In this document: positions 5,880 to 43,426 of the stretch, piece by piece
How the letters are laid out: every line of letters starts with the position of its first letter
Numbering within the stretch: position 1 is the first letter of the stretch
Source: Burkholderiales bacterium
Lineage (GTDB): Bacteria > Pseudomonadota > Gammaproteobacteria > Burkholderiales > SHXO01
Direction of reading: 5' to 3'
Assembly: GCA_035499005.1 (NCBI GenBank)
Contig: DATJZQ010000158.1
Coordinates: 3,364-67,363 of the forward strand
Length of the DNA stretch: 64,000 bases
Program-made: the position numbers and the translations under genes
The notes under the pieces: generated by a model
What the model was told of the DNA's origin: nothing
The model's database searches: none
What the model saw: the letters and a program-made list of their open reading frames with translations, nothing else

Positions 5880-6314
5880 TCAGCGCGGCTTGAGATTGCG
5901 GATGTAGACGACGATCTGCTTGATCTGGTCGTCGGTGAACACTCCGCCGAAAGCCGCCATGCGTCCGGGCTTGCCGAACTTGATGCGCTCGAAGATCTGC
6001 TCGTCGGTCTTCTCGGTGCCCATCAGCTGAGGCCCTTTGCCTGCCCTGCGCCCGCCGTCCTCGTGACAGAAGCCGCAGATGTTGCTGAACGCACCGTGAG
6101 CGCTGAACTCCGGCGCCTTCGCCGGCTCAGACTGGTCCGCGGTCTTGGTCTGCGCTGGCTGGCCAGCGTCTTTGGGTGTCTCGTAGCGCGTCATCGGTGT
6201 CGCGGGCTTGGTGTCGTCGGCCGCGGCGCTACAAGCCGCGAGAGCGAGGCACACTGCCGTCGCGGACACGGCGTGGTGGACCGCACTACGCGCTGCCGCC
6301 TGCAGACTCGTCAT
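5880..6314 (-). CDS. Class I c-type cytochrome, probable lipoprotein; likely electron acceptor of the adjacent PQQ dehydrogenase
   Basis: ORF 144 aa. Lipobox-like LALAAC after a signal sequence, single heme motif CGFCH, distal Met in GKPGRMAAF. Lies 93 nt downstream of the PQQ dehydrogenase on the same strand. Confidence 0.8.
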   Translation of the reverse strand: MTSLQAAARSAVHHAVSATAVCLALAACSAAADDTKPATPMTRYETPKDAGQPAQTKTADQSEPAKAPEFSAHGAFSNICGFCHEDGGRRAGKGPQLMGTEKTDEQIFERIKFGKPGRMAAFGGVFTDDQIKQIVVYIRNLKPR

Positions 6315-6407
6315 CTCGAATCTCCTCTGAAGCGATATTTTATCCCACCATAAAAAAGAGGCGGGGAAGATTCCCCGCCTCCGATGTGCAGCGCGTTTGC
6401 GGCGAAA

Positions 6408-8147
6408 TTACGGCAGCGCAAACACTTTGAGGACGCCGGCGTCCTTCGGATAGCTCGCGTACGGTTCGCCGAACCATTCGCCGTAGCCATCGCCGACCAG
6501 GCTGCCCCACCCGGTTACCACCGCAATGTACTGCTTGCCCTTCGCGGTGTACGTGATGATGCCGCCGTTGTGGCCCATGCCGTTCTGGTGACCCCACAGC
6601 AGCTTACCGTTGCTCGCGTCGTAGGCGCGCAGTACTCCATCCGCGCCCGGCACGAACAGCAGGTTGCCGCCGGTGGTGAGCAGGCTGGCGTGCGGCGGTA
6701 CGTCATAGTGGATGCTGAACGCGACCTTGCCGGTGATCGGATCGCGCCCATCGACGTGGCCGTACATGCGCTCTTCGCCCTTGGCCGGCACGAACTTGAA
6801 GTCCGCGCCGATGTTGAGTTGCGCCATCGGCTCCAGCACCGGGGTGGTCTTCACCACCTCGAGGTCGATACACCACTCGTAGCCGACGCGGTAGAACAGC
6901 TTGGTCTTCGGATTGTAGGAACCCGAGTTCCAGCTCAAACCGCCGGCGATGGCCGGGCACAGGTTCTCGTGCTTGCCCTCGCGCAGGTCGCGGCGTCCCA
7001 CCAGCGTGCCGTCGTCCTTGATGGTCTGAACGAAGTTGATGTTCTTGACGAACGGCCAGACCTTCTGCGGGTTGGCGTTGCGGTCGTACACGAACACGAA
7101 GCCGCCCTTGTTCGGGTGGACCACGTACTTCTTGCCGCCCTGGTCGATGAACATGAACTCGCCCATCGCGCTGTCGAAGTCCCACGCGTCATGCGGCAGC
7201 TCCTGCCAATAGCCCTTGAGCTTGCCGGTGTCGGGATCGAGCAGCACGACCGAGGTGGTGTACAGGTTCACGCCGGGCCGCGGGCCGTTGTTCTGCCAGT
7301 CGGGACCGGCCCAGTCGTACAGAGGTGCCGGGTTGCCGGTTCCCCACCACACGGAGTTGGTCTCTGGATCGTACGAGCCCGCCATCCAGCCGCCCCCGCC
7401 GCCCGTCTTCCACGAGTCGCCGCCCCAGGTGTTGCGCGAATCCCCGTTGTCCTCATTGCCACCCACCGTGAAGAACTGCCACACCTGCTGGCCGCTCTTG
7501 GCGTCGACGCCGAAGATGGGACCGCGATAGGGCCACTCGCCGCCCTGGGCGCCGATGATCACCTTGTCCTTGACCACCAGCGGAGCGCCGGTGAAGCCCA
7601 CAGTCAGCTTCTCGGAGTTGATCAGCTTCGTTTCCCAGTTGAGCTTGCCGGTCTTCGCGTCGACCGCGACCAGCTTGCCGTCCAGGGTGCCCATGTAGAT
7701 GTTGCCGTAACCCGCTGCGATGCCGCGGTTATAGGGCGAGTGGGTCTGCTTGGCGACCAGATCTTCGTTGAGCTTCTGCTTGTAGGTCCACAGCATCTGC
7801 CCGGTCGCCCCGTCCAGCGCGTAGAGCTGGTTGTACGAGCTCGTGTAGTAGACCACGCCGTCGATGGCCAGGGGGAAGCTCTGCAGCCCACGATAGGCGC
7901 GCGAGGCGACGTGCGACCAGGCCTCCTGCAGCCGTCCCACGTTCGCGGTGTTGATCTGATCGAGCGCGCTGTAATGCCACGACTTGTAGGTGCCGTGATA
8001 CATCATCCAGTTGCCCGGCTCGCCCGCCGCATTCAACAGACGATCGTAAGTCACGTCGGCGGCACCGGCCTGCGCTGCGACGCAGGCGAACGCCGCTGCC
8101 GCAACGGCCTTGACGCCGCCGGCAACCTGGTTCTTCCATCGTTTCAT
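6408..8147 (-). CDS. PQQ-dependent dehydrogenase, methanol/ethanol family (8-bladed propeller quinoprotein)
   Basis: ORF 579 aa with signal peptide. Family blocks GAQGGEWPYRGP, TWGGDSWKTGGGGGWMAGSYDPETNSVWWGTGNPAP, LPHDAWDFDS, TTGGNLLFVPGADGVLRAYDASNGKLLW. See findings for DxD and missing Cys-Cys. Confidence 0.92.
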   Translation of the reverse strand: MKRWKNQVAGGVKAVAAAAFACVAAQAGAADVTYDRLLNAAGEPGNWMMYHGTYKSWHYSALDQINTANVGRLQEAWSHVASRAYRGLQSFPLAIDGVVYYTSSYNQLYALDGATGQMLWTYKQKLNEDLVAKQTHSPYNRGIAAGYGNIYMGTLDGKLVAVDAKTGKLNWETKLINSEKLTVGFTGAPLVVKDKVIIGAQGGEWPYRGPIFGVDAKSGQQVWQFFTVGGNEDNGDSRNTWGGDSWKTGGGGGWMAGSYDPETNSVWWGTGNPAPLYDWAGPDWQNNGPRPGVNLYTTSVVLLDPDTGKLKGYWQELPHDAWDFDSAMGEFMFIDQGGKKYVVHPNKGGFVFVYDRNANPQKVWPFVKNINFVQTIKDDGTLVGRRDLREGKHENLCPAIAGGLSWNSGSYNPKTKLFYRVGYEWCIDLEVVKTTPVLEPMAQLNIGADFKFVPAKGEERMYGHVDGRDPITGKVAFSIHYDVPPHASLLTTGGNLLFVPGADGVLRAYDASNGKLLWGHQNGMGHNGGIITYTAKGKQYIAVVTGWGSLVGDGYGEWFGEPYASYPKDAGVLKVFALP

Positions 8148-8884: not shown

Positions 8885-9370
8885 TCATCGGTGCTCGGGG
8901 AGAATGCGCTGAAGCAAGGCGACCAGCGTCTCGCGCTCCGCGGCAGTCAGATTGCTGACCAGGCGCTTCTCATGGCGCGCGACCCGCTGTTTCAGCCTCT
9001 TCAAAAGTGCCGTGCCGGCGGCCGTCAGCGAAATACCGTTCACACGGCGATCCTCGACTGAGGCGCGGCGCGCCACCAGCCCGCGCGCCTCGAGCTTGTC
9101 CAGCGCCGGCACCAGGCTGGAGCGGTCGAGGCGGGCCGCGTTTGCCAGCTCGGTCTGCTTCAGGCCCGGATTGGCTTCGATGATGACCAGCATGCCGAAC
9201 AGGCCCGGGCTCATATCGAGCTCACCCATCGCCGCGGCGAAATCGTCGAAGATGGCGCGCTGCGCCAGGCGCAGATGGTAGCCGAGCAAACCCGGCAGCA
9301 GGCCGAGCTTGGCGCCCCCGGCGGCAGAGGCCGCGAGCGGACGAGCTTTGCGCCTAGGCGTTTCCGACAT
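8885..9370 (-). CDS. MarR-family transcriptional regulator
   Basis: ORF 161 aa. Winged-helix pattern typical of MarR (LKQTELANAARLDRSSLVPALDKLEARGLVARRASVEDRRVNGISLTAAG). Divergent from the catabolic operon starting at 9477. Confidence 0.85.
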   Translation of the reverse strand: MSETPRRKARPLAASAAGGAKLGLLPGLLGYHLRLAQRAIFDDFAAAMGELDMSPGLFGMLVIIEANPGLKQTELANAARLDRSSLVPALDKLEARGLVARRASVEDRRVNGISLTAAGTALLKRLKQRVARHEKRLVSNLTAAERETLVALLQRILPEHR

Positions 9371-9476: not shown

Positions 9477-10535
9477 ATGACTTGGACCATCACCCTGGCC
9501 GGCGATCCGCAGAGCGCACCAGCGGAGGATGGCGAAACCGTGCTGGACGCGCTGCTGCGCCACGGCGTAGGGTTCGCTTACAGCTGCCAGTCGGGCAACT
9601 GCGGCACCTGCAAGTGCGAATACGTCGCGGGCGACATCCTGGAGCTCGAGTACTCGGAGCATGCGCTGTCAGCGGCCGAGCGCAGCCGCGGTGTGATCCT
9701 CGCCTGCCGGACGCAGGTGTGGGGCGACGTCGAGATCCGCCGCCTCACGGCCGAGGACTTCGTGATGCATCCCTCGCGAGTGATGCAATGCAGGGTGGCG
9801 GAGATGAGCTTCGCAACGCACGATGTGCTGCGGCTGCGGCTCGCGATCGAGTCGGGCGGTCCTTACACGTTTTCCGCCGGACAGTTCGCCAAGCTCGAGT
9901 TCGGCTTCGCCCCGAATGTCCCGCGCGACTATTCAATGGCCAATCGGCCGGACGATGCGATGCTGGAGTTTCACATCCGCTGCATGGCCGGCGGGGTGAG
10001 CAGCCATCTTCCGGCGCAGCTCAGGGTGGGCGATCCGGTGCGCGTCTCAGGTCCGTTCGGCACGTCGTATCTGCGCGAACAGCACCCCGGACCGCTGATC
10101 GCCGTCGCGGGCGGCACCGGCCTCGCCCCGATCCGCTCCATCATCGCCGCCGCGCTCGCCAAGGGTATGGTGCAGCCGCTTCACCTCTACTTCGGCGTGC
10201 GCGCAGAGCGCGACGTGTATGGCGAGGCGGAATTGCGCGCATGGCAGGCCCAGCATCCGCAGCTGAAAGCGCACGTGGTGCTGTCCGATCAGCCGCAGCC
10301 CGGTGACGTGCACGAGACCGCCGCCACTCCGGCGCGGCGCTACGGCCTGGTGACGGACGCTGTGCGCGGTGATTTCGCCAGCTTTGCCGGGTTTCAGGCC
10401 TATCTCGCCGGGCCGCCGGCGATGGTGGACGCCGCCACGGAGCTGCTGCGCGCGGGCGGGATTGCGGCGCGCGACATCCACGCGGACGCCTTCTACAGAG
10501 CCATCGACCAGACAGCGTCGGGGGCGGTGGCATGA
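9477..10535 (+). CDS. Ferredoxin-NAD(P)H oxidoreductase: N-terminal plant-type [2Fe-2S] + FNR-like FAD/NAD domains (oxygenase reductase component)
   Basis: ORF 352 aa. CQSGNCGTCKC...ILACR cluster motif, RDYSMAN flavin motif, AVAGGTGLAPIRS NAD(P)-binding motif. Domain order as in NagAa/phenol-hydroxylase-type reductases, opposite to PaaE. Confidence 0.88.
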   Translation: MTWTITLAGDPQSAPAEDGETVLDALLRHGVGFAYSCQSGNCGTCKCEYVAGDILELEYSEHALSAAERSRGVILACRTQVWGDVEIRRLTAEDFVMHPSRVMQCRVAEMSFATHDVLRLRLAIESGGPYTFSAGQFAKLEFGFAPNVPRDYSMANRPDDAMLEFHIRCMAGGVSSHLPAQLRVGDPVRVSGPFGTSYLREQHPGPLIAVAGGTGLAPIRSIIAAALAKGMVQPLHLYFGVRAERDVYGEAELRAWQAQHPQLKAHVVLSDQPQPGDVHETAATPARRYGLVTDAVRGDFASFAGFQAYLAGPPAMVDAATELLRAGGIAARDIHADAFYRAIDQTASGAVA

Positions 10536-11464
10536 GCCGTCCGTTCAGCCTCGAAGGGCAAGTCGCTATCGTGAGCGGGGGCGCGCGCGGCATCGGCTAC
10601 GCCGTCGCGCAAGAGCTGCTCCGGCTCGGCGCGCGCGTGACACTCGTCGATCCGGGCGTCTCGATAGCAGGCGAGGAGGCCGATGCCGACAGCGTGCAAA
10701 CTGCCGCTGCCGCCCTGGGGGCCAACGCGTTGGCTGTGCCTGAAGACATCGCCGCGCCGGGAGCGGCGCAGACGGCGGTGCAGCTGACGCTCGAGCGCTT
10801 CGGCGCGCTGGACATCGTGATCAACAATGCGGCCATTCTGCGCGACGGCTTCATCTTCAAGTCGCAGCGCAGCGATTGGGAGCGCGTCATCCAGACCAAC
10901 CTCACCGGCGCGTGGGCCTTGCTCGCCGCAGCGACGCCGGTCCTGCGCGATGCAGTGAAGAGCGGCCGCGCGCCAGGGCGGATCGTCAACATGACTTCGA
11001 CCGCTGGACTGTACGGCAACTACGCTCAGTCAGCTTATGCGGCGGCAAAGGCGGGTCTGGTCGGGCTCACACGCGCTGTAGCGCTGGACATGGCGCGCTC
11101 CAAGGTGAACTGCAACGCCGTTGCGCCGTTTGCCGCCACGCGCGTGACCGAGTCCATCGCGCCGGCCAACCCGGCGCAACAGGCATACAAGGAGCGCGCG
11201 CTGAAAATCCCGGCCGGCCATGCCGCGCGCCTGGTCGGGTGGCTCTGCTCGCCGGGCTGCGATGTCACCGGCCAGATCTTCGGAGTGCGCGGGCGCGAGG
11301 TGTTTCTGTTTTCCCAGCCGCGGCCCGCAGTACGCGTGCTGACCGCGCCATTGGCGGACCTGACGCCGGAGTCACTTGACGCCGCCATCAGCATCGCGGT
11401 GCAGGATCAGCTGGTCGAGCTCACCTCCGACCTCGAAGCATTCGACAGCGAACCCATCCTCTAG
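10532..11464 (+). CDS. SDR-family oxidoreductase (hydroxyacyl-CoA-dehydrogenase-like, with C-terminal extension)
   Basis: ORF 310 aa. VSGGARGIG cofactor motif, NNAAI, catalytic S...YAAAK. ATGA start/stop overlap with the reductase gene. Confidence 0.85.
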   Translation: MSRPFSLEGQVAIVSGGARGIGYAVAQELLRLGARVTLVDPGVSIAGEEADADSVQTAAAALGANALAVPEDIAAPGAAQTAVQLTLERFGALDIVINNAAILRDGFIFKSQRSDWERVIQTNLTGAWALLAAATPVLRDAVKSGRAPGRIVNMTSTAGLYGNYAQSAYAAAKAGLVGLTRAVALDMARSKVNCNAVAPFAATRVTESIAPANPAQQAYKERALKIPAGHAARLVGWLCSPGCDVTGQIFGVRGREVFLFSQPRPAVRVLTAPLADLTPESLDAAISIAVQDQLVELTSDLEAFDSEPIL

Positions 11465-11466
11465 CT

Positions 11467-12195
11467 ATGGAGCGCAAGATGTCCACCACGGAAGCCACGC
11501 AAATCCAGATCCCCGAGGTGAAGACGGCGGCCGAGCTGGCCCAGCAGCCGGAGGAGTATCGCACCGCCGTGCAGAAGATCGTCATCAGCCACGCGGTCAA
11601 CGAGCTGTACGGCGCGCAGGTGTTCGACGAGCCGGCCATCAAGCTCGCACCGACTCCCTACGCCAAGTGGCTGACCTGCCGGGTGGCGATGGAGGAGTAT
11701 CATCATCACGTCCGCTTCAAGGCCTTGGCGGACGAGATCGGCGTCGAGCCGGAGCGCATGGATCCGCAGCACAAGCGCCCGCTGTCGATTTTCAGCTTCG
11801 CGCTCAGGACCTGGCCGGAATTCTGCGTGATCAAAGCCATCGCGGACTATGCCGAGATCCTGCAGGTGGAGGATCTGCTCCACTGCAGCTTCCATCCGCT
11901 GCGCAATCTGGCACGCATTACCATGCCGGAGGAGAAGTTCCACGCCAAGTTCGGCAAGGACTTCTGCCTGGACTTGATCCAGCGCGGCAGCGCCGCCGAG
12001 GTCCAGGACGCCATCGACCGCTACTTCCCGATCACGCCCGGTTTTTTCGGAGGCAGCCAGTCCAAGAACAACGAGATCTACCGCAAGTGGAAACTGAAGC
12101 AGCGCAGCAACGAGGAAATGCGGCAGGATTTCCTGACCCGCGTTACCGAGCTGGTTGAACGCGACTTCGGCTTGAAGCTCCCCGCGGTGAACTGA
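11467..12195 (+). CDS. Ferritin-like di-iron oxygenase subunit, PaaA-like (phenylacetyl-CoA epoxidase catalytic-subunit family), minimal 242-aa form
   Basis: ORF 242 aa. E...ExxH...D/E...ExxH ligand pattern visible (NELYG, MEEYHHH, ADYAE, PEEKFH). Block-wise resemblance to E. coli PaaA as I recall it (YRKTLIRQIGQHAHSEIVG / QDEAGH / KEESFHQRQG / DAINRFWWP). Start 2 nt after the SDR stop. Confidence 0.7.
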
Positions 12196-12227: not shown

Positions 12228-13268
12228 ATGACACGAGCGGCCACGGACATCCGCGTGGAGCGCGACGCCTACTATCAGCGCATCGCGCAGGCTAATCTGA
12301 CGCCGCTGTGGGAGGTGATGTCCGCGCTGGTGCCTGAGCAGCCGCGCTCCCCGTGTGTGCCGGCCATCTGGCGCTATCAACAGGTGCGCCCCTGGCTGAT
12401 GGAATCGGGCCGGCTGATCTCGGCCAAGGAAGCCGTTCGGCGCGTGCTGATCCTGAAGAATCCCGGCCTGTCAGGCGCCTCGGCGATCACTCAGTCGCTC
12501 TTTGCCGGACTGCAGCTGATCTTGCCGGGCGAAGTTGCTCCCAGCCACCGCCACACGCAGTCGGCGCTGCGCTTGATCGTCGAAGGCAGTGGCGCGTTCA
12601 CCGCGGTCGAAGGCGAGCGCATCACGATGCACCCGGGCGATTTCATCATCACACCGGCATGGACCTGGCACGACCACGGCAATCCCGGCAGCGAGCCCGT
12701 GGTCTGGCTGGACGGCCTGGACATTCCGCTCGTGCGCTTTCTGGAGGCGGGTTTCCAGGAAAACTATCCGCAGGACTCGCAGCCGGTGGCGCGCCCTGAG
12801 GGCGATGCGCTGGCACGCTACGGCGCCAATCTGCTGCCGGTCGACTACCGGCCGCGCGGTCTTGCATCGCCCGTCTTCGCCTACCCCTATGGGCGGACGC
12901 GCGAGACGCTGGAGCAGCTGCGCTGCAACGGGAAGCCGCATGCGGTGCACGGCTACAAGATGCAGTTCATCAACCCGGCGAGCGGTAGTTACCCGATGCC
13001 CAGCATCGGCGCGTTCGTGCAGCTTCTGCCGGCAGGTTTTCGCGGCGGCGCCTGCCGCTGCACGGACGGGACCGTGTTCCACTGCATCGAGGGTGGGGGC
13101 AGCGTGAGCGTCGGCAGCGAGCGCCTCACGTTCTCTGCACGCGATACGTTCGTGGTTCCCGCGTGGTGTACCCATCGACTCGACGCCGACGGCGAGACGG
13201 TGCTGTTCAGCTTCTCAGATCGCCCGGTGCAGCAGGCGCTCGGACTGTGGCGCGAGGAGCTGAGCTGA
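12228..13268 (+). CDS. Gentisate 1,2-dioxygenase (bicupin)
   Basis: ORF 346 aa. Hallmark block [69 protein letters not shown] upstream. Confidence 0.92.
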
Positions 13269-13319: not shown

Positions 13320-14012
13320 ATGACAAACGCCTTCGTCGTTGACGCGCACCAAACGCCGTCGGTTCCCGTTGCCGGCCAAAAAGGCCGCTTCCCGGTGCAT
13401 CGCATCTACTGCGTCGGGCGCAACTACGCCGCGCACGCGCGCGAGATGGGGAAGGACCCCGAGCGTGAGCCGCCGTTCTTTTTCCTGAAGCCCGCCGACG
13501 CAGTGGTCCCCGAAGGCGGCGAGGTCCACTACCCGCCGGGCACTTCCAACCTGCATCACGAGATCGAACTGGTGGTTGCGCTGCACCGCGGCGGGTTCCA
13601 GATTCCCGCGGCGCGGGCGCTGGACCACGTCTACGGCTACGCGGTCGGCTTGGACATGACGCGCCGGGACCTGCAGTTCCAGGCGCGCGACATGGGACGT
13701 CCATGGGATTTCGGCAAGGCCTTCGACGAGTCGGCGCCGATCACCACCATCTACCCCGTTGCCAGCCACGGGCATCATTTGGCGGGCGCCATTACGCTCT
13801 CGGTCAACGGCGAGCTGCGTCAGCAGGGCGACTTGAAGGACATGATCTGGAACGTTCCGGACACGCTGGCGTTTCTGTCCAATTACTACCGCCTCCAGGC
13901 TGGTGACTTGATCTTCACCGGAACGCCTGCGGGGGTGGGTGCTGTGGTGCGCGGGGACAAGCTGGTGGGCAAGGTCGAGGGTCTCGCCGAGCTCCACGTC
14001 ACCATCATCTGA
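13320..14012 (+). CDS. FAH-family hydrolase, probable fumarylpyruvate hydrolase
   Basis: ORF 230 aa. FAH C-terminal fold motifs (CVGRNYAAHAREMG, HHEIELVVAL, DLIFTGTPAGVG). Sits downstream of gentisate dioxygenase. Confidence 0.85.
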   Translation: MTNAFVVDAHQTPSVPVAGQKGRFPVHRIYCVGRNYAAHAREMGKDPEREPPFFFLKPADAVVPEGGEVHYPPGTSNLHHEIELVVALHRGGFQIPAARALDHVYGYAVGLDMTRRDLQFQARDMGRPWDFGKAFDESAPITTIYPVASHGHHLAGAITLSVNGELRQQGDLKDMIWNVPDTLAFLSNYYRLQAGDLIFTGTPAGVGAVVRGDKLVGKVEGLAELHVTII

Positions 14013-14021
14013 ATCGGCGTC

Positions 14022-14924
14022 GTGGACGCGCGCAAGACCTGGCTCGAAGTCGCGCTCAACGGTCCGTGGGGCCGCGCACGCCAGCCAGGGATCCCGGTGA
14101 GCGTGCGGGACATCGTGGACCAGGCCGCAGCGTGCGTGCGTGCCGGGGCGGCGATCGTGCACGTGCACGCCTACGACGAGTCGAGCGGCGCACCGCGGGA
14201 AAGCGCGGCCGCCTACGCCGCCATCATCGAGGGCATCCGGCGACATGTGGACGCGATCGTCTATCCGACCGTGTCAATTCCCGGCATGGCACACTCGCCC
14301 GTGGACGAAACGCCGCCGCAGCGCTTCGCGGTGCACGAGGAGCTCGCGCAACGCGGCCTGCTGGAGTGGGCGGCGGTCGACCCTGGTTCGCTCAACATCG
14401 CCTCGTACGATGATCTGCGCCAGGACCGCGATGGATTCGTGTACCGCAATCCCGAGCAACATCTGCGCTACGCGCTCGGCCTTGCGGCTCGTTATCGTTT
14501 TCATCCAAGCTACGCGATCTACGAGCCGGGCTTTCTGCGGCTGGGGGCGTCGTTGCACTGGCGCTGCGCCTGTCCGGCTCCCATCTACCGCTTCATGTTT
14601 TCCACGGACTACACCTTTGGGTTCCCCGCCGATGACTACGGTCTCACGGCCTATCTCAAGCTCATGGACCAGGTGGCGCCGGGCGCCAGGTGGATGGTGG
14701 CCGGTCTGGGCGTCGACATCCGGCAACTCGTGCCGCGCGCGGTAGCGGAGGGCGGACACGTCCGCGTGGGTCTGGAGGACGCGTCGCTCGGTTGCGCCCA
14801 GACGAACGTCGAACTGGTGGAGGCGGCCGCTCGCATGATCAATGCCTGTGGCGGCGAGCTGGCGACTGCGGTCGAGGTGCGCGCCGAGCTGCGCGCGGCG
14901 GAGAGGGGCGAGGCGCAGCTATAA
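14022..14924 (+). CDS. Beta-keto acid cleavage enzyme (BKACE / 3-keto-5-aminohexanoate cleavage enzyme family, DUF849)
   Basis: ORF 300 aa, GTG start. Family-like N-terminus WLEVALNG and HVHAYD, VRVGLED blocks as I recall for Kce-type TIM barrels. Confidence 0.75.
   Translation: MDARKTWLEVALNGPWGRARQPGIPVSVRDIVDQAAACVRAGAAIVHVHAYDESSGAPRESAAAYAAIIEGIRRHVDAIVYPTVSIPGMAHSPVDETPPQRFAVHEELAQRGLLEWAAVDPGSLNIASYDDLRQDRDGFVYRNPEQHLRYALGLAARYRFHPSYAIYEPGFLRLGASLHWRCACPAPIYRFMFSTDYTFGFPADDYGLTAYLKLMDQVAPGARWMVAGLGVDIRQLVPRAVAEGGHVRVGLEDASLGCAQTNVELVEAAARMINACGGELATAVEVRAELRAAERGEAQL
14919..14924 (+). promoter_or_regulatory. Perfect TATAAT hexamer 29 nt upstream of the pdxA-family start (candidate -10 box; overlaps BKACE stop codon)
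   Basis: Exact hexamer read in sequence. No convincing -35. Confidence 0.25.
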
Positions 14925-14952
14925 TCGCAGCGATCAGCGATCGGCAAACTTC

Positions 14953-15954
14953 ATGACCTCACCACCCAGAATCGGCATCACGATGGGCGACCCCTCCGGA
15001 GTCGGGCCCGAGATCATCGTCAAGGCGCTGGCGGAGATGTCGCCTGAGCAGCGTTCTGCGTCGGCGGTAGTCGGTGATCTCGATTTCCTCAAGCGCGCAG
15101 AACGCTTGGTGGGTGCGGGCCTCACGTATGCTGAGGCGCCTGAGAGCGCGCGCAACGGCGTCGTTCCGGTGTTCCATGTGCCCAGTCGCGGCTCCGGTCA
15201 GATCCGTGACGGCGAGATCACTGCGGCGGGCGGCGAGGCGGCTTACCAATACGTGGTGAAGGCGGTGGAGCTGGCCCTGGCCGGGACGATCGGGGTGATC
15301 GTCACGGCGCCACTGAACAAAGGTGCGATGCATGCGGCCGGCCACCATTTCGACGGTCACACAGAGCTGCTTGCGCATCTGACCGGCGCCAAGTCGTCCT
15401 TCATGCTGCTCGCGTCGAGCAAGATGTCGGTGGTACACGTATCGACTCACGTCAGCCTGCGGACCGCGACCCAGCGCGCGACGACTGAGCGCGTGCTTGC
15501 CACCATCCGCGCTGGCAGCGACCATTTCAACGCACTCGGCTACGCGCACCCGCGCATCGCCGTGGCCGGACTGAACCCGCATTGCGGCGAAGGCGGCATC
15601 TTCGGCAACGAAGAGATCGACCACATCAATCATGCGGTCGAGCTCGCGCGCCAGCAGGGCATGGACGTCAAGGGCCCGATTTCCGGCGACACCGTGTTCT
15701 ACCGCGCGCTCAAGGGCGAATTCGATCTGGTGGTTGCGCAGTACCACGACCAGGGTCACATCCCGAGCAAGCTCATCGCCTTCGACGAAACCGTGAATGT
15801 CAGCCTCGGACTCCCCATCCGGCGCACGTCGGTCGATCACGGCACCGCATTCGACATCGCGTGGAAAGGCAAAGCCAACCACGTCAACATGCGCGCCGCC
15901 GTGGCTTATGCGCGCATGATGGCCGAGCGCCTGCCCGCGAGCGCGGTGGCCTGA
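14953..15954 (+). CDS. PdxA-family NAD-dependent 4-phospho-hydroxyacid dehydrogenase (PdxA2-like)
   Basis: ORF 14842..15954 trimmed to ATG 14953 (MTSPPRIGITMGDPSGVGPEI...). Family blocks TAPLNK, GHTELLA, HVSTHVSL, AGLNPHCGEGG, YHDQGHIP, RTSVDHGTAFD. Confidence 0.88.
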   Translation: MTSPPRIGITMGDPSGVGPEIIVKALAEMSPEQRSASAVVGDLDFLKRAERLVGAGLTYAEAPESARNGVVPVFHVPSRGSGQIRDGEITAAGGEAAYQYVVKAVELALAGTIGVIVTAPLNKGAMHAAGHHFDGHTELLAHLTGAKSSFMLLASSKMSVVHVSTHVSLRTATQRATTERVLATIRAGSDHFNALGYAHPRIAVAGLNPHCGEGGIFGNEEIDHINHAVELARQQGMDVKGPISGDTVFYRALKGEFDLVVAQYHDQGHIPSKLIAFDETVNVSLGLPIRRTSVDHGTAFDIAWKGKANHVNMRAAVAYARMMAERLPASAVA

Positions 15955-15972
15955 CGGCTGTCGGCCGGCGCG

Positions 15973-17169
15973 ATGGCGGCTGTTCCACGACTCACCATCG
16001 TCGCGGACGATCTCACCGGAGCGATGGATGCCGCCGCGCCGCTCGCGGAGCGCGGCCTGGCGACATGGGTCGTAGCCGACGCCGAGCGCAACGCGTCGCA
16101 GACGCTTCCACCGGCACAGGTGGTGTCCATCAACGCGGCGAGTCGGCATCTACCCAAAGAAGATGCCGCCCAGCGCGTGCGCGCGTTGTCATCCAGGTTG
16201 CTCGATCCCGGCTGCGAGATCCTGATCAAAAAGATCGATTCGACGCTGCGCGGCAACGCGGTGGCGGAAACCCTGGCCCTGTTGGAGGCGAGCGGGCGCG
16301 CCGCGGCGGTCGTGGCGCCTGCGTTTCCGCGACAGGGGCGCACGCTCGTCGCGGGTGTGGTGCACGTCCACGGCGTGCCCCTTGCGCATACCGAGCTCGC
16401 ACGCGATACGCTGTCGCCCCCGCCGGCCGAGCCGTTGCACCTGCTGTTCCGCTCCGCGGCTCCGCAAGACGAAGTGCGTCTGGTCGCACGAGGCGCATCC
16501 GTCGCTTTGTCGCGAGTCGGCCGACGGCAGATCCTCGTGGTCGACGCTGCCAGCGACGACGACCTGCGCAGTACGGTGCGTTCGCTGAGCAGCCAGTTGA
16601 GCGACACCTTGCTGGTGGGCTCGGCGGGGATTTCGGAGGCTGTGGCGCACACTTGCTTCGAGGCGCCCCGGGAGGCACTCGCCGCGCCCGCGGTTAGAGA
16701 GCAAATGGTGTTTGTGGTCGGTTCGCGCACGGAGCAAAGCGCGCAACAGGTGCGCGCACTGATCGAGTCCGGCCGGGCGAGGCTGATCGCTGCACCGGCG
16801 GGCTGCGTAGATCTCTCCGCTGCGCTGGGTGCGCCCGAAGCGCTGCTCGTGATCAAGGCGGAGCCCGGCAGCGGGGCAGACCACACGGATGCCGCGGAGG
16901 TTGCCTGTCGTCTGGCGGACGCGGCGGGGACGCTGATCGAGCGCCAACCGATCGCGGCCCTGGTCGTGACGGGCGGCGACACAGCCTTCGCTGTGCTGCG
17001 GCGTCTGGGCCAGACTACAGTGCAGGTGATGGGTAACCTGCTGCCCGGAATCCCGTTCAGCCGTATTCGATTCGGCATGCGGGAGCTGTGGCTTGTGACG
17101 AAAGCGGGCGGGTTTGGCGCGCGAGACACGTTGGCGACCATCGCGCAGCGGTTGCACGGCGCAGCCTGA
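15973..17169 (+). CDS. Four-carbon acid-sugar kinase family protein (DUF1537; threonate/erythronate/3-oxo-tetronate kinase-like)
   Basis: ORF 398 aa. N-terminal IVADDLTGAMD and KIDSTLRGN blocks and C-terminal VTGGDTA...KAGGFG block typical of DUF1537. Adjacent to its usual PdxA2 partner. Confidence 0.82.
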   Translation: MAAVPRLTIVADDLTGAMDAAAPLAERGLATWVVADAERNASQTLPPAQVVSINAASRHLPKEDAAQRVRALSSRLLDPGCEILIKKIDSTLRGNAVAETLALLEASGRAAAVVAPAFPRQGRTLVAGVVHVHGVPLAHTELARDTLSPPPAEPLHLLFRSAAPQDEVRLVARGASVALSRVGRRQILVVDAASDDDLRSTVRSLSSQLSDTLLVGSAGISEAVAHTCFEAPREALAAPAVREQMVFVVGSRTEQSAQQVRALIESGRARLIAAPAGCVDLSAALGAPEALLVIKAEPGSGADHTDAAEVACRLADAAGTLIERQPIAALVVTGGDTAFAVLRRLGQTTVQVMGNLLPGIPFSRIRFGMRELWLVTKAGGFGARDTLATIAQRLHGAA

Positions 17170-17273: not shown

Positions 17274-17870
17274 ATGACGTGGCGGGAGAGCGAAGGCGTG
17301 AGCGCAAACCGTTGGCACCACTTGCTGGCCCGCGTGGCCGCGGTCGCGATCGTGCTCGCAACGGCCGATGCCGCGTGCGAAGATCGAGTCAGCGTCGAGG
17401 CGCACCGCGAGGGCGAAGCGGTGATTGTCGAAGCGCGCGCCGCGCTGCACGTGGATCTGGCAATCGCGTGGGAGGTGCTCACCGGCTACGACCGGTACCC
17501 GCAGTTCATCCCCGATCTCACCTCCAGCCGCGTGTTGAGCCGCTCGGGCAGCGACGTGGTCGTCGAGCAGAAAGGGCAGCTCGCATTCCTGGTATTTCGC
17601 CTCCCGCTGGAGGTGACTATGAACGTCAGCGAGCGGCCCCGCACCGGCATCAGCTCGCGCGCGATCGGGGGCACTTTTCGGGAGATGACCGGGAGCTACG
17701 AGCTGGCGCAGGCGGGCGAAGACTTGCAGCTCACTTACAGCGGCCGCATGGTGCCGCGCTTCGGGTTGCTCTCGCTCATGGGGACCGCAGCCGTGAAGGC
17801 CGCCGTCGAAAAGCAGTTCGGTGCCCTGGTGCGGGAGATGCAGATCCGCGCTGCCGTGCCGGAAAAGTAA
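17274..17870 (+). CDS. SRPBCC-superfamily (polyketide cyclase/dehydrase-like) protein with N-terminal signal/anchor
   Basis: ORF 198 aa. YDRYPQFIPDL motif characteristic of this fold family. Hydrophobic N-terminal segment LLARVAAVAIVLATADAA. Confidence 0.65.
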   Translation: MTWRESEGVSANRWHHLLARVAAVAIVLATADAACEDRVSVEAHREGEAVIVEARAALHVDLAIAWEVLTGYDRYPQFIPDLTSSRVLSRSGSDVVVEQKGQLAFLVFRLPLEVTMNVSERPRTGISSRAIGGTFREMTGSYELAQAGEDLQLTYSGRMVPRFGLLSLMGTAAVKAAVEKQFGALVREMQIRAAVPEK

Positions 17871-17984
17871 GCCCCGCACTCGAACGTATTGACGGATGCG
17901 TAGTGCCTGGACCCTCAGGCGGCCCGGGGATAGCACATCGGTAGAATGGGCAATTCGCCCCCGTTTCGCACCAGAAGGCCTGGC

Positions 17985-19403
17985 ATGACGTCCGTTCCAT
18001 CTGCGTTCTTGCACCCTGCGAGCGTCGCTTTGGTCGGTGCGGGCGATCGGCTCACGAGCTCCGGAGGAGCCGTGCTGCGCAACCTGGAGCGTTCCGGGTT
18101 TCGAGGCCGCGTCGTCCCCGTGAACCCGAAGGGTGGTCAGCTGTTCGGGCTGCCAGTGGCGCGCTCGCTTGCCGCCGTGTCGCCGCCCTGTGAGCTCACG
18201 GTGATCGTGGTTCGACCGGACGCGATCATGGACGTTGCCCGCGAAGCGGCCGCGAGCGGACACCGCAATCTGCTGATCCTGCCCGGTGGATTCGCCGAAG
18301 GCGGTCAAGAGGCCAAGGCGCGCGACCGTGAGCTGCGCGCGTTGTCTGTGGAGCACGAGCTCATAGTTGGCGGGCCGAACTGCGCCGGGACCATCAACCT
18401 GCTCGATGCGTCAGCGCCGTTCGCCGCCACCTTTCTGCGCGATCTGCCGCGCGGAGGCGGTGTGGCGCTGGTGTCGCAGTCGGGCGCTATCGCGGAGGAG
18501 GTGATCGCCTCCAGCCACCGCCTCGGTATCCCGCTCGGCGCGGTGATTTCGGTGGGCAATGCCATGCACCTCGGGTTGACCGAATACCTCGACGAGCTCG
18601 GTGCGGATTCTGCCTGCAGAGCTATCCTGCTGTACGCGGAATCGTTCGGCGATGTACCGCAGTTTCGCGATATCGCGCGGCGCGTCAGCATGCGCAAACC
18701 GGTCGTCGCGCTGGTAGGCGGGCGCACCGCGCCCGGTCGCCGCGCCGCGTTTCGGCACACCGGCTCCCAGGCGCCCGCCAGCGACGAAGCCGACGCTTTC
18801 TGCGCGGAATGCGGCATGGTGAGGGCAACCAATCTGCGTCGGCTCATGCTCGCTGGAAAAGCATTCGGCGTCCATCCGGGCGGCATCGGGCGGCGCGTAT
18901 TGGTGCTATCCAACTCGGGGGGCCCGGGCGTGCTGTGCACCGATCAGACGGCGCTCGAAGGCCTGGAGCTCCCGGATCTGCCTGCGGCGCTCGCTACCCG
19001 ACTGCGCGGCTCACTTCCGCCGGAAGCGGCCGTGGCCAATCCGCTCGATCTGCTCGCGGACGCGCGCGACGACCGGTTCGCAGACACACTGACGGCCGTG
19101 CTGGAGCACGGTGCAAGCTTCGATGCCATATTGATGATCCACGTCGTTCCCTTCATGGTCGATGGCGGTGCGGTCGTCAGCCGGCTCGCCGCGCTATGCC
19201 GCGGCGCCGCCCTTCCGGTCCTGCACACGATGATGGGCACGCTGGAGCACAGGGCGGAATGGATGGCGGCGATGGAGGCGGCCGGTGTGCCGATGTTCGA
19301 CAGCGCGGAGGACATGGCCGAGGCAGCGGGGCTCCTCGCGCGCTACCGCGCCTTGCGAGACGACCTGAAGGCAGACGTGTCGCGGTCGGGTGAAGCACAG
19401 TGA
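17985..19403 (+). CDS. CoA-binding, ADP-forming acyl-CoA synthetase alpha-like protein (no ATP-grasp domain)
   Basis: ORF 17946..19403. Start placed at second Met (MTSVPSAFLHPASVALVGAG...). CoA-binding Rossmann block VPVNPKG, succinyl-CoA-ligase-like GPNCAGTINL and SQSGA blocks, then a third flavodoxin-like domain (VLSNSGGPGVL). No ATP-grasp signature seen. Confidence 0.75.
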   Translation: MTSVPSAFLHPASVALVGAGDRLTSSGGAVLRNLERSGFRGRVVPVNPKGGQLFGLPVARSLAAVSPPCELTVIVVRPDAIMDVAREAAASGHRNLLILPGGFAEGGQEAKARDRELRALSVEHELIVGGPNCAGTINLLDASAPFAATFLRDLPRGGGVALVSQSGAIAEEVIASSHRLGIPLGAVISVGNAMHLGLTEYLDELGADSACRAILLYAESFGDVPQFRDIARRVSMRKPVVALVGGRTAPGRRAAFRHTGSQAPASDEADAFCAECGMVRATNLRRLMLAGKAFGVHPGGIGRRVLVLSNSGGPGVLCTDQTALEGLELPDLPAALATRLRGSLPPEAAVANPLDLLADARDDRFADTLTAVLEHGASFDAILMIHVVPFMVDGGAVVSRLAALCRGAALPVLHTMMGTLEHRAEWMAAMEAAGVPMFDSAEDMAEAAGLLARYRALRDDLKADVSRSGEAQ

Positions 19404-19429
19404 GATCGAGCGCAGCGGAGGAGATGAAG

Positions 19430-20074
19430 ATGAGACTGTTCGGTTATTGGCGCAGCTCTGCGGCTTACCGGGTGCGCATCGCGCTCGCGCTCAAAGGGCT
19501 CACGTACGAGCACGTGGGCGTCCATCTGGCACGAGGCGAACAGCACCTGCCCGATTTTGCAGCCGTCAATCCGCAGCAGCTGGTACCTGCGTTGCAGGAC
19601 GGTGAGCATCTGCTGTTTCAGTCCCTCGCCATCATCGAGTACCTGGAGGAAACACACCCGCAGCCGCGGCTGTTGCCGACCGATGCGGCCGAGCGCGCCC
19701 GGGTGCGCTCGCTCGCGCAGATCGTGGCCTGCGAGATTCATCCTCTGAACAATCTCAGAGTCCTCAGCTACCTCACCGGCCAGCTCGCCGTTTCCGAGGA
19801 GCAGAAATTGACCTGGTACCGGCATTGGGTGACGACCGGGTTCGCCGCGTTCGAGGAGCGCCTGGGGCGCGAACCGTGGACCGGCCGCTTCTGCCACCGC
19901 GACGCGCCGGGGTTGGCCGACATTGCGCTGGCGCCGCAGATTGCTAATGCCCGGCGCTTCAAGGTTGATTTGACGCCCTTCCCGGTCATTCGCCGCATCA
20001 CCGACGAGTGCATGAAACTCGAGGCGTTTCAGAAGGCGGCGCCAGAGCACCAGCCGGATGCGGACAGGAGCTAG
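19430..20074 (+). CDS. maiA: Maleylpyruvate/maleylacetoacetate isomerase (GST zeta class)
   Basis: ORF 19400..20074 trimmed to ATG 19430, 6 nt after GGAGGAG. MRLFGYWRSSAAYRVRIALALKGL...VNPQQLVPAL...QSLAIIEYLEETHP are zeta-GST hallmarks. Confidence 0.88.
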   Translation: MRLFGYWRSSAAYRVRIALALKGLTYEHVGVHLARGEQHLPDFAAVNPQQLVPALQDGEHLLFQSLAIIEYLEETHPQPRLLPTDAAERARVRSLAQIVACEIHPLNNLRVLSYLTGQLAVSEEQKLTWYRHWVTTGFAAFEERLGREPWTGRFCHRDAPGLADIALAPQIANARRFKVDLTPFPVIRRITDECMKLEAFQKAAPEHQPDADRS

Positions 20075-23732: not shown

Positions 23733-24344
23733 TCAGGCGAGGGTGTCGTCCCCATCGCTGTCCGCTGCACCCGCGTCGGTCTTGGCGCGGGTTGCCTGCA
23801 GCAACACCACCGCGGCCCCGGCACCGCCTTCGGCCGCCGATGCCTGACAGAACGCCAGCACTTCTCTGCGCTGGGCGAGCCAGCCGGCGACTTTGCGCTT
23901 GAGCACGGGTTCGCGCTTCCCCGCGCCAAGGCCTCTCCCGTGCACCACCAGCACGCAACGCAGCCCTCGTCTGCCGGCCTGGCCCAGGAATTGGACCAGC
24001 AGCCCGCGCGCCTCGTCCACGCGCGCTCCGTGCAGGTCCAGCTGATCCTGCCTGGCCCAGTAGCCGCTGCGCAGCTTGCGCAGCACCTGCCGGGACACGC
24101 CCGGCCGGGCAAACGACAGGGCGTCGCCCGATTCCAGCTCGAGGTCTGCTTCGCCGGGCTCGCTGACGCTGTCCTGGAGGACGCGGCGGTCGTCTTCCAG
24201 ACGCTGAAGAGGAAGCGGAGCGCGCGCCTTCGGCGAGTGCACGACGCGCCCCCGGTCGGGGAGCGGTTGCACATCTTGCACAGCGTCGAGGAACTCGCGG
24301 GCCGGGTCGGGCGCAGTCTCATATCTGCCGCGGCGCCTCGTCAT
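23733..24344 (-). CDS. Smr-domain protein (SmrA/MutS2-related endonuclease domain)
   Basis: ORF 23733..24653 trimmed to Met104 (complement of 24342-24344). The extension overlaps trxB. C-terminal LDLHGARVDEARGLL...VVHGRGLG Smr motif. Confidence 0.8.
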   Translation of the reverse strand: MTRRRGRYETAPDPAREFLDAVQDVQPLPDRGRVVHSPKARAPLPLQRLEDDRRVLQDSVSEPGEADLELESGDALSFARPGVSRQVLRKLRSGYWARQDQLDLHGARVDEARGLLVQFLGQAGRRGLRCVLVVHGRGLGAGKREPVLKRKVAGWLAQRREVLAFCQASAAEGGAGAAVVLLQATRAKTDAGAADSDGDDTLA

Positions 24345-24357
24345 CTCGGCTCCATGA

Positions 24358-25425
<1,068 letters not shown>

Positions 25426-25473
25426 TCACCGATCGTCTGCTTGCGCGTCCGAGGTTGTCCCCGATCCGGGTCG

Positions 25474-25479
25474 TATAAT
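25474..25479 (+). promoter_or_regulatory. Perfect TATAAT hexamer 32 nt upstream of the preferred ftsK start (candidate -10 box)
   Basis: Exact hexamer in the trxB/ftsK divergent spacer. It overlaps the earlier in-frame ATG at 25478, which argues for the ATG at 25511 as start. Confidence 0.3.
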
Positions 25480-25510
25480 GCGGCATGCTCCCGATGCATT
25501 TTTCCCGACA

Positions 25511-27808
25511 ATGTTCCTCCGATCCCGCGCTGACGCGGTGAAGCGCAAGCCGTGGCCTCCGCGGCTGGCGGCCCTGGCGCGGGAGGCGTGGTGGCTGGTG
25601 CTGCTGCTCGGCGCGCTTTATCTCGCCCTTGTCCTCGTTACCTATGACAAATCCGACCCGGGCTGGTCGCTCAGCACGGGCGGCGAGCACGTTCACAACG
25701 CGGGGGGACGGTTTGGCGCCTGGCTGGCCGATGTGCTTCTGTCGTTGTTCGGGTTGTCGGCCTACTGGTGCATCGTGCTTCTGCTGTTCGCAATCCTGTG
25801 GGGTTATCGGCGATTGGATGCTCGCGCGCCGGGCGATCGCCGCTCTCTTCTGATTGCGGGCCTGGGCTTCTTGTCGCTGCTGCTCGCGAGCGCCAGCCTG
25901 GAGGCGATGCGACTGCATGCCTTGCACGCGCAACTGCCGCTCACGCCGGGCGGCGTGCTCGGCACGAGCGTAGCCCACTTGTTCTCGCGTTGGTTCGGTC
26001 ACACCGGCGGCGCTCTGACATTGCTGTTCATCGGCGGCATCGGGTTGTCGCTGTTCAGCGGTTTGTCCTGGCTCGACGTGTCGGAGAAGCTGGGCGAGTG
26101 GATCGAGCGCGTCTGGTCGGCTGCGCTCGTGCGCTGGGACGCGGCGCGCGACCGCAAACTGGGCGAGCGGGCAGCTTACCGCCGCGAAGAGATGGTGGAG
26201 GAGGACAAACGCAAGCTCGACGAGCACGAGCCCATCCGTATCGAGCAGGTTCAGCTGGAGATCCCCAGATCGGCGCGCGTCGCGCGCGAGAAACAGAAGC
26301 CCCTGTTCGAAGACTTGCCCGATTCCCCGCTGCCGCCGCTGCACCTGCTGGAAGAATCCAGAGGGGATGTCCAGATCCTTTCCGCGGACACGTTGGAGTA
26401 CACCTCCCGGCTGATCGAAAAGAAGCTGCTCGACTTTGGCATCGAGGTGAGGGTGGTCGCGGCTCAGCCCGGGCCGGTCATCACGCGCTACGAGATCGAG
26501 CCGGCGGTGGGCGTGAAAGGCAGCCAGATCGTCAACCTGGTGAAGGATCTCGCCCGCGCGCTGTCGGTTGTGAGCATCCGCGTGGTCGAGACCATCCCGA
26601 ACAAGTCGTACATGGGCCTCGAGATACCCAATCCCAAGCGTCAGGTCGTGCGGCTGTCGGAGATTCTGAGCTCGCAGGTATACGCCGATCTCGCATCGCC
26701 GCTCACCCTCGCGCTGGGTAAGGACATCGCCGGCAAGCCTGTCGTCGCCGATCTTGCGCGCATGCCGCACCTGCTGGTGGCAGGGACGACGGGCTCGGGC
26801 AAGTCGGTGGCCATCAACGCCATGATCCTGAGCCTGCTGTTCAAGGCCACGCCGAACGAAGTGCGCCTGATCCTGGTCGATCCCAAGATGCTGGAGCTGT
26901 CGGCCTATGAGGGCATTCCGCACCTGCTTGCCCCCGTCGTGACCGACATGAAGCAGGCGGCGCAGGCGCTGGGCTGGTGCGTCGGCGAGATGGAGCGCCG
27001 CTACCGCCTCATGTCGGCCGTGGGCGTTCGACACCTGGCGGGCTTCAACCAGAAGGTCAAGGACGCGGAGAAGGCCGGTCAGGTGCTGGTCGATCCGCTT
27101 GCTGTGCCGGCTCCCGGCGACGGGCAGATGGCGCCAGCGCCCCTGAAGGAGCTGCCCCTGGTGGTGGTGGTGATCGACGAGCTCGCCGATCTGATGATGG
27201 TGGTGGGCAAGAAAGTCGAGGAGTTGATCGCCCGTCTGGCGCAGAAGGCGCGAGCCGCCGGCATCCATCTGCTTCTGGCCACGCAGCGCCCGTCGGTGGA
27301 CGTCATCACCGGCCTGATCAAAGCCAACATACCGACACGCATCGCATTCCAGGTGTCGAGCAAGGTGGACTCGCGCACCATCCTGGACCAGATGGGAGCA
27401 GAGTCACTGCTCGGCCAGGGTGACATGCTGTACCTTCCACCAGGAACCGGCCACCCGCAGCGCGTGCATGGCGCGTTCGTCGGCGACGAGGAGGTGCACA
27501 ATGTCGTGCAGTATCTCAAGTTGCGCGCGCAGCCTCAGTACATCGAAGGCATTCTGGACAATCCCGACGAGCTCGAAGGTGAGCTCGAGGGGCTGGACCA
27601 GGCGGACGCAGAATCCGACCCGCTCTACGACCAGGCCGTCGAAATCGTGTTGAGATCACGGCGCGCCTCCATCTCGCTGGTGCAACGTCATCTTCGCATC
27701 GGTTACAACCGTGCCGCCCGGCTGATCGAGCAGATGGAGCGCGCCGGCCTGGTATCGGCCATGGCGACCAACGGCAACCGGGAGGTCCTGGTGCAGGGCA
27801 AGGAATGA
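25511..27808 (+). CDS. ftsK: DNA translocase FtsK
   Basis: ORF 25298..27808 trimmed to [15 protein letters not shown]... Four N-terminal TM helices, Walker [36 protein letters not shown]-terminal gamma winged helix ([25 protein letters not shown]). Confidence 0.93.
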
Positions 27809-40142: not shown

Positions 40143-40181
40143 GGCGTGGTGCCGCGAGCCGGGGCGCCAGCCGCGCTGCGC

Positions 40182-40187
40182 TATAAT
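40182..40187 (+). promoter_or_regulatory. Perfect TATAAT hexamer 62 nt upstream of ccmI (candidate internal -10 box)
   Basis: Exact hexamer in the 107-nt ccmH/ccmI spacer, flanked by GCGC...GCGC and followed by CTTTTTC. Confidence 0.25.
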
Positions 40188-40249
40188 TCGCGCCTTTTTC
40201 GTGCCATTTTCGAGCAACGCAAGCTGCCTCGCCACGTGGGCAGCCGATC

Positions 40250-43298: not shown

Positions 43299-43410
43299 CG
43301 AGGCTCCTCCCATTGGTCTCCATGTTTGTCGCCGGGCATCCGTGCCCGCGGCGCCCTGTTTGAATTTTTCAGGGGGGCACACGGCCCCATGGCGCCTGAT
43401 TTCGTCCCCA

Positions 43411-43426
43411 GGCAACTGTCGTGCCT
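43411..43426 (-). promoter_or_regulatory. Sigma-54 (RpoN) promoter, near-consensus -24/-12 element
   Basis: Minus strand reads A-GGCACG-ACAG-TTGC-C versus consensus TGGCACG-N4-TTGCW, with correct GG/GC spacing. Lies ~113 nt upstream of the pilin-like ATG. Confidence 0.65.

Follow-up and report, generated by a model that had tools for sequence, protein, structure and literature searches.

Two ring epoxidases of CoA thioesters, PaaABC(D)E of Escherichia coli and Pseudomonas and the benzoyl-CoA 2,3-epoxidase BoxAB, are the characterised enzymes with which the gene considered here can be compared most closely. In PaaA the di-iron ligands are E42, E72, H75, D126, E155, and H158, F108 orients the acyl ring, and K103 sits at the entrance; the reductase PaaE belongs to class IA, with the FAD/NAD domains at the N-terminus and the [2Fe-2S] domain at the C-terminus, and BoxB is a monomeric protein which works with BoxA alone (PMC4498308). 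The present analysis concerns a short PaaA-like gene (11467–12195, + strand) in a 64-kb stretch of Burkholderiales DNA (65% GC), which as a whole is called the window below, and this gene heads a complete gentisate degradation operon of uncultured soil Burkholderiales. To our knowledge, the described CoA-ester di-iron oxygenases PaaABCE and BoxAB lead to non-aromatic ring opening, and the gentisate-forming enzymes known to us are flavoproteins or Rieske oxygenases. The product of the PaaA-like gene may be the catalytic di-iron subunit of an aromatic acyl-CoA ring oxygenase from the PaaA/BoxB lineage, which together with a dehydrogenase would make gentisyl-CoA, a reading on which our confidence is evenly divided.

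Oxygenases of the PaaA/BoxB family also act in biosynthesis, where the Paa-type AntHIJKL of antimycin hydroxylates an aryl thioester via an epoxide and a 1,2-shift (PMC3869250), and CysC of cystobactamid, a BoxB homologue, is proposed to act on para-aminobenzoyl-CoA (PMC7966384). CoA-dependent routes to gentisate are described as well, including one where salicylyl-CoA is turned into gentisyl-CoA (PMC11335346, PMC13215587) and the formation of gentisate via gentisyl-CoA with BH1999 as gentisyl-CoA thioesterase (PMC516016). In literature searches (gentisate with PaaA, PaaA-like/diiron, hydroxybenzoyl-CoA) no paper on this PaaA-like family was found, and a paper on Aromatoleum catabolism gave the flavin route only. 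In comparison with these systems, the new features are a distinct and well-conserved clade, a fixed partner from the short-chain dehydrogenases/reductases (SDR) of multifunctional enzyme type 2 (MFE-2), and the place at the head of the gentisate pathway.

Sequence and predicted fold of the PaaA-like protein

The open reading frame (ORF) 11467–12195 has a GC content at third codon positions (GC3) of 0.89, which is coding-type and typical for the genes of the window. Its product matches the Pfam family PF05138 (PaaA_PaaC) over residues 24–240 with 77.2 bits (cutoff 28.5, E 1.5e-21). Judged from its sequence, it is PaaA-like and not PaaC-like, yet no PaaA orthologue, because the PaaA equivalog model TIGR02156 gives 85.5 bits, below the 280-bit cutoff, and the NCBIfam PaaC model gives 17.9 bits only. 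A phmmer search of the PDB sequences returned PaaA (E ~1e-15), then SSO1313 of Sulfolobus solfataricus (4mud, 4e-6), and then BoxB (0.02); the window protein shares 25% identity with E. coli PaaA when aligned by MAFFT and 29% in tblastn.

In the MAFFT alignment with the E. coli PaaA and PaaC sequences (from NC_000913) the PaaA ligand E42 corresponds to E46 of the window protein, E72 to E77, H75 to H80, D126 to D127, E155 to E156, and H158 to H159, while four of the six are lost in PaaC. These six residues, together with D54, E55, R72, and F109, are 100% conserved in 186 of 186 family members (65–100% identity), and a di-iron site is predicted from the ligand positions. The counterpart of PaaA F108 is the invariant F109, and the position of K103 is occupied by R or K in 176 of the 186 members. 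The E...ExxH...(D/E)...ExxH pattern, which the first-pass annotation had read from the letters of this gene, is thus real, all six residues falling on the published PaaA ligands. The assignment of the protein to a catalytic PaaA type rather than to PaaC is borne out by the two model scores.

The window protein has 242 aa versus 309 aa in E. coli PaaA; the alignment stops at an LxxP motif, and the C-terminal extension of PaaA (~65 residues) is absent, in agreement with the shortening of about 65 residues noted before. Lengths in the 186 members range from 231 to 242 aa. The true start is more likely ATG 11479, giving 238 aa, because a GGAG stands at 11469–11472 and the closest homologues are 238 aa long; ATG 11467 lies only 2 nt after the stop codon of the SDR gene.

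An AlphaFold2 model from 18 close homologues (pLDDT 65.6) was superseded by a model from a 58-sequence alignment including distant short forms, for which pLDDT was 95.7 and pTM 0.89. In the Foldseek comparison of this model with the PDB the best match was PaaA (TMq 0.80–0.83, 26% identity) and the second SSO1313 (TMq 0.81, TMt 0.88), with PaaC at ~0.76 and BoxB at TMq 0.67–0.72 and TMt 0.35–0.39; two of these matches are characterised enzymes, and both, PaaA and BoxB, epoxidise the ring of a CoA thioester. SSO1313 resembles the window protein as a short (235 aa) PaaA-like chain with no partner subunit in the entry, but its identity is 19% only, its clade is a different one, and it comes from a structural-genomics entry without known function.

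In a neighbour-joining tree the window clade and the proteins P0125 and P0130 (both 49% identical to the window protein and used as seeds of a metagenome scan for further loci) group within a broad radiation of PaaA-like proteins of 235–260 aa, apart from the true PaaAs (300–330 aa). The short form is therefore not a one-off truncation but one clade of a large radiation, and the phylogeny and alignment proposed earlier as a check find the ligands homologous to those of PaaA and the clade separate from it. As a side observation, two ligand positions are lost in P0122 (L165, 329–1027; 52% identical), with A in place of E77 and Q in place of E156. The protein, seen only on a 1.8-kb contig, could be a degenerate PaaC-like structural paralogue.

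Redox partners and the Paa subunits

The first gene of the co-oriented set (9477–10535, + strand) encodes an NAD(P)H:ferredoxin-type reductase of class IB layout, in which Fer2 (residues 5–81) is followed by FAD_binding_6 (105–197) and NAD_binding_1 (210–320), and the C37-x4-C42-x2-C45 motif is intact. The best named models were BenC (175 bits) and MmoC (172 bits), each under its cutoff; the PaaE model gave 115 bits versus a 421-bit cutoff and the BoxA model 36.6 bits versus a 459-bit cutoff. The N-terminal [2Fe-2S] domain that had been pointed out for this reductase is confirmed by the Fer2-FAD-NAD order, which is the layout of BenC and MmoC and the opposite of that of PaaE.

The second gene (10532–11464, + strand), whose ATG overlaps the TGA of the reductase, encodes a 310-aa SDR of the MFE-2 or (3R)-hydroxyacyl-CoA dehydrogenase type (adh_short, 141.8 bits). 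Its closest solved relative is 2et6, the (3R)-hydroxyacyl-CoA dehydrogenase of MFE-2 (E 7e-64), and it carries SGGARGIG, LVD, NNAA, and YAAAK, the classical motifs of NAD-type SDRs. In all related loci that cover the position, including actinobacterial nonribosomal peptide synthetase (NRPS) clusters, the SDR gene stands immediately 5' of the PaaA-like gene, and this fixed MFE-2-type partner is a new feature of the clade. The pair is, moreover, always accompanied by a CoA-handling enzyme, which may be the alpha subunit of an NDP-forming acyl-CoA synthetase (ACD-alpha), a 4HBT thioesterase, or an AMP-forming ligase. The view of the first-pass annotation that the locus represents a stripped-down two-component system does not survive these two constant neighbours, and a minimal CoA-ester di-iron enzyme is no novelty in itself, as BoxB with BoxA provides the precedent (PMC4498308).

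With the E. coli proteins as tblastn queries (E <= 1e-3), neither the window nor any of ~160 related loci, each spanning at most 20 kb, gave a match to PaaB, PaaC, or PaaD, so that the reported lack of such partners nearby holds and hidden copies in the window are ruled out. Among the scanned window ORFs no PaaB- or DUF59-like protein was found, and the ORFs outside the cluster gave housekeeping matches only in Pfam scans (ftsK, lolA, serS, ccm, mutS, suf, and others). One might still suppose that the protein is a surplus catalytic subunit of PaaA type and that PaaB and PaaC (and PaaD), with which it assembles into a canonical multicomponent enzyme, come from unlinked genes in another part of the genome. 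This would suit the insolubility of E. coli PaaA alone, which stems from its hydrophobic PaaC interface (PMC4498308), and only 64 kb of the genome are in view. It is nevertheless highly improbable, since the search of ~160 loci was empty, the protein lacks the C-terminal extension of PaaA and scores far below the equivalog cutoff, the clade is its own and has a different invariant neighbour, and the entry of stand-alone SSO1313 (4mud chains A–D) shows a crystal with four copies of one chain and no partner subunit.

Set beside PaaABC(D)E, the window system has in common PF05138, the six-residue di-iron site, the equivalents of F108 and K103, the best structural match, an NAD(P)H/FAD/[2Fe-2S] reductase as electron source, and a likely CoA thioester substrate. 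It is unlike PaaABC(D)E in the shorter subunit without C-terminal extension, the equivalog score below cutoff, the possible lack of a counterpart to K68, the missing PaaB, PaaC, and PaaD, the class IB instead of class IA reductase, the invariant SDR, and the downstream gentisate pathway in place of paaG, paaZ, and beta-oxidation. With BoxAB it would share a di-iron oxygenation of the ring of a CoA ester, probably of benzoyl-CoA type here, with a reductase and no structural subunit. However, BoxB has ~475 aa and is only remotely similar, BoxA is a [4Fe-4S]/FAD protein unrelated to the window reductase, and ring opening in the Box pathway is non-oxidative (BoxC), whereas the window operon continues with an aromatic ring-cleavage dioxygenase.

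The gentisate operon and a possible route through gentisyl-CoA

Directly after the PaaA-like gene lies the gene for gentisate 1,2-dioxygenase (GDO; 12228–13268, + strand), which exceeds the cutoff of the TIGR02272 equivalog model (537.8 versus 442.1 bits). It is followed by an FAH-family hydrolase (13320–14012, +; FAA_hydrolase, 179 bits), which stands after the dioxygenase in most loci and by context is a fumarylpyruvate hydrolase, and further downstream by ACD-alpha (17946–19403, +; CoA_binding_2, Succ_CoA_lig, and Ligase_CoA_2 domains) and a zeta-class glutathione S-transferase (GST; 19400–20074, +; TIGR01262 maiA, 290.7 bits above the 171 cutoff), by context the maleylpyruvate isomerase. 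Because a complete gentisate operon surrounds the gene, it is not a phenylacetate enzyme; this context was absent from the first-pass annotation and is defining for the gene. The PaaA-like protein aside, the operon contains no gentisate-forming hydroxylase.

In the proposed route, electrons from NAD(P)H would pass through the Fer2-FAD-NAD reductase to the di-iron site, and at the far end the dioxygenase, the GST isomerase, and the FAH hydrolase would turn gentisate into fumarate and pyruvate, both parts resting on strong homology. The steps between are drawn from gene context. The di-iron site would oxygenate the ring of benzoyl-, salicylyl-, or 3- or 4-hydroxybenzoyl-CoA by epoxidation or hydroxylation, a non-aromatic intermediate would be oxidised by the SDR at a ring hydroxyl in beta position to the thioester and so re-aromatise to gentisyl-CoA, and ACD-alpha, or a 4HBT thioesterase in some relatives, would free gentisate. 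It is in this way that we infer that the substrate is a thioester, which product is formed, what the SDR does, and which way the ACD-alpha reaction runs.

The closest solved relatives of the CoA-binding ACD-alpha are 2csu and the alpha subunit of 4xyl, TIGR02717 scores 323 bits on it (below the 567-bit cutoff), and at residue 271 it has an HTGS motif, which we take to be the phosphohistidine loop. The window encodes no 4HBT thioesterase. ACD-alpha is missing from L072, L078, and L079, three gentisate-type loci that are complete in other respects, and a 4HBT acyl-CoA thioesterase adjoins the GST gene there instead; for this reason the thioesterase step is perhaps performed by ACD-alpha in the window operon.

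These 4HBT loci bring the family near to the SdgABC, CehGHI, and BH1999 routes, with which it would share the sequence from aryl-CoA through gentisyl-CoA and gentisate to GDO. PhgABC and benzoyl-CoA 3-monooxygenase are also CoA-dependent gentisate routes with flavin hydroxylases. In contrast to such routes, a ferritin-like di-iron protein takes the place of the flavoprotein hydroxylase here, no AMP-forming ligase is present in the operon, the thioesterase is usually replaced by ACD-alpha, and an SDR is added.

The position of the gene in the operon is that of a gentisate-forming hydroxylase and its reductase is of the type that serves Rieske oxygenases and bacterial multicomponent monooxygenases on free aromatics. 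Both would suit a hydroxylase with two components that acts on a free aromatic acid (as salicylate 5- or 3-hydroxybenzoate 6-hydroxylase) and replaces NagGH/NagAaAb or MhbM, with the SDR and ACD-alpha left for other steps. The window has no aryl-CoA ligase and L078 has a TRAP transporter for an acid, which would also speak for a free substrate. This alternative is nonetheless improbable in our view, as CoA thioesters are the substrates of PaaA and BoxB, the characterised enzymes among the closest structural matches, an SDR of hydroxyacyl-CoA dehydrogenase type is invariably attached, and the alternation of ACD-alpha with 4HBT, like the actinobacterial AMP-ligase, is hard to explain without thioesters.

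A more specific form of the gentisyl-CoA reading, which we regard as distinctly doubtful, starts from unsubstituted benzoyl-CoA, which the reductase, the PaaA-like protein, and the SDR would turn into gentisyl-CoA via an arene oxide and dehydrogenation. The di-iron enzyme would form the arene oxide, water would open it to a 2,5-dihydrodiol-type dienoyl-CoA, the SDR would re-aromatise the latter and regenerate NADH, and ACD-alpha would conserve the thioester energy as ATP. If this is true, Paa and Box would be joined by a third aerobic "hybrid" route for aromatic acids that depends on CoA and ends in a classical ring-cleavage dioxygenase, and there would be a gene-level explanation for old biochemical reports in which benzoyl-CoA was reportedly converted to gentisate.

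For the gentisyl-CoA reading in general, a ferritin-like di-iron oxygenase that together with a dehydrogenase keeps the ring aromatic and delivers gentisate to the cleavage enzyme would amount to a novel enzymatic solution and would link two styles of aerobic aromatic catabolism. At present the pathway is mis-annotated as "PaaA" in metagenomes.

Distribution of the family and its locus types

The family comprises more than 2000 members in a collection of 5.8 billion proteins, almost all of 231–242 aa, and clustering of a library at 50% identity reduces it to a handful of clusters, followed by a gap down to proteins of 24–33% identity. The genome loci studied are the best 80 of 211 relatives from a scan with one genome per species; all of these are uncultured metagenome-assembled genomes, labelled mostly Burkholderiales or Betaproteobacteria. 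A tblastn search of 72,556 plasmids returned canonical PaaA only, at <=32% identity, and no close relative. A profile search with distant short forms led mainly to the same clade again, and the contigs of the distant short PaaA-like proteins P0156, P0161, P0174, and P0122 are too short for gene context.

Where the contig suffices, the recurrent order in the 80 loci is a MarR gene, then reductase, SDR, PaaA-like protein, GDO, in some a protein of ~180 aa without assignment, FAH hydrolase, in some a set of three further genes, ACD-alpha, and GST. In the window these three are a beta-keto acid cleavage enzyme (BKACE; 14022–14924, +; PF05853, 193 bits), a PdxA-family dehydrogenase (14953–15954, +; PF04166, 330 bits; TIGR00557, 350 bits), and a DUF1537-type acid-sugar kinase (15973–17169, +; SBD_N and NBD_C). 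They are kept in most of the 80 loci and gone from the most divergent ones, and they are regarded as accessory because of that absence. The PdxA-family ORF gives 318 bits with the D-threonate 4-phosphate dehydrogenase model (583-bit cutoff) and the kinase 198 bits with the D-threonate kinase model, below its cutoff; as an observation in its own right, the two together resemble the catabolic pairs for D-threonate and D-erythronate.

Three locus contexts can be distinguished, namely the gentisate type, a reductase-less module, and an actinobacterial NRPS type. In the last, a GC-rich actinobacterial clade (45–49% identity), the SDR and PaaA-like genes stand in NRPS clusters (L084, L108, L163) with an AMP-binding ligase and in some cases the ~180-aa protein, and a fused PabAB-like gene is also present in the genome of P0130 (L163). 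This suggests for the sister clade a tailoring of an aminobenzoyl or other aryl starter unit. AntHIJKL and CysC/CysL are PaaA/BoxB-family systems that hydroxylate aromatic thioesters with the ring kept aromatic, and the sister clade likewise has NRPS surroundings, where an aryl-acid ligase and a PabAB-like gene accompany it. In contrast to the window system, AntHIJKL keeps all five Paa-type subunits and CysC is a BoxB-type protein; no obligatory SDR is reported for either system, and both are biosynthetic, not catabolic as proposed for the window operon. If the same pair indeed tailors aryl starter units, this would help genome mining and biocatalysis.

Several facts weigh against the gentisyl-CoA reading. 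Seven loci (L126–128, L130, L134, L138, and L142) consist of the SDR, the PaaA-like protein, the ~180-aa protein, a phosphatase of the Exo_endo_phos (EEP) family, and ACD-alpha beside ftsK and lolA, with neither reductase nor gentisate genes, and consequently the link of the core pair to gentisate is not a general one. Inside the operon (14022–17169, between FAH and ACD-alpha) lie BKACE, PdxA, and kinase genes without an explained link to gentisate. The origin of the CoA ester is left unexplained, because no AMP-forming aryl-CoA ligase was found among the scanned window ORFs (an AMP-binding ligase occurs only in the actinobacterial clade) and neither the operon nor the flanking DNA of related loci contained an ATP-grasp beta subunit for ACD-alpha. 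In the protein itself, PaaA K68, which forms the lysine bridge and contacts E49, E72, and D126, aligns with V73, while the residue just before V73 is the invariant R72, and D54/E55 fall close to PaaA E49. Plain monooxygenation of salicylyl- or 3-hydroxybenzoyl-CoA would need no SDR, so that the role given to the SDR is conjecture, and the functional assignment as a whole is by guilt of association.

Part of this evidence would fit a di-iron/SDR pair acting on a non-aromatic or other acyl-CoA, for example as a desaturase/aromatase of an alicyclic acyl-CoA or as another thioester oxygenase, which would merely have been recruited beside the gentisate genes in this lineage and of which gentisyl-CoA would not be the direct product. 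The seven reductase-less modules beside housekeeping genes, the occurrence of the pair in NRPS clusters, the three additional genes within the operon, and an SDR type that normally handles aliphatic 3-hydroxyacyl-CoAs all point that way. On the other hand, the pair is co-oriented with the gentisate genes in 80 of the 80 genome loci, with ACD-alpha between FAH and GST, the operon has no other gentisate-making enzyme, and the ring-orienting Phe of PaaA is invariant; we therefore consider such a different substrate unlikely.

The ~180-aa protein adjoins the PaaA-like gene or GDO in 75 related loci (for example, L001 11798–12328, L125 11762–12325, L127 10714–11271, and L165 1126–1653) and shows the motifs WFSACGxPL, NPxWDxxWW, and GRWPLG. 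Neither Pfam nor NCBIfam gives a match for it; it is lacking in the window and in the closest relatives of the latter, and it could be an effector or an accessory subunit. Between the kinase and ACD-alpha genes of the window stands an SRPBCC or polyketide-cyclase-like ORF (17274–17870, +; PF03364, 44 bits), which only part of the related loci share; as a homologue of the ~180-aa protein it was rejected at 16% identity.

Divergently from the reductase gene lies a MarR-family regulator (8885–9370, - strand; Pfam MarR), for which the best NCBIfam model, the Saro_0803 family, gives 97.7 bits (cutoff 200); it takes the same position in most of those of the 80 genome loci that are long enough to show it, and no inverted repeat was detected in the MarR–reductase intergenic region. 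Elsewhere in the window the ORFs 23940–24365, 39561–40235 (-), 42564–43415 (-), and 63093–63959 (-) have coding-type GC3; no Pfam match was obtained for the first with an E limit of 1e-3 or for the other three with a limit of 1e-5. The module of L127 is situated just downstream of ftsK and lolA, and the ftsK and lolA genes of the window itself (25298–28497) lie ~5 kb from the cluster. Upstream of the cluster, at 5880–8147 (-), the window encodes a pyrroloquinoline quinone-dependent dehydrogenase (579 aa) with an adjoining small c-type cytochrome, and the same pair is found upstream in L001.

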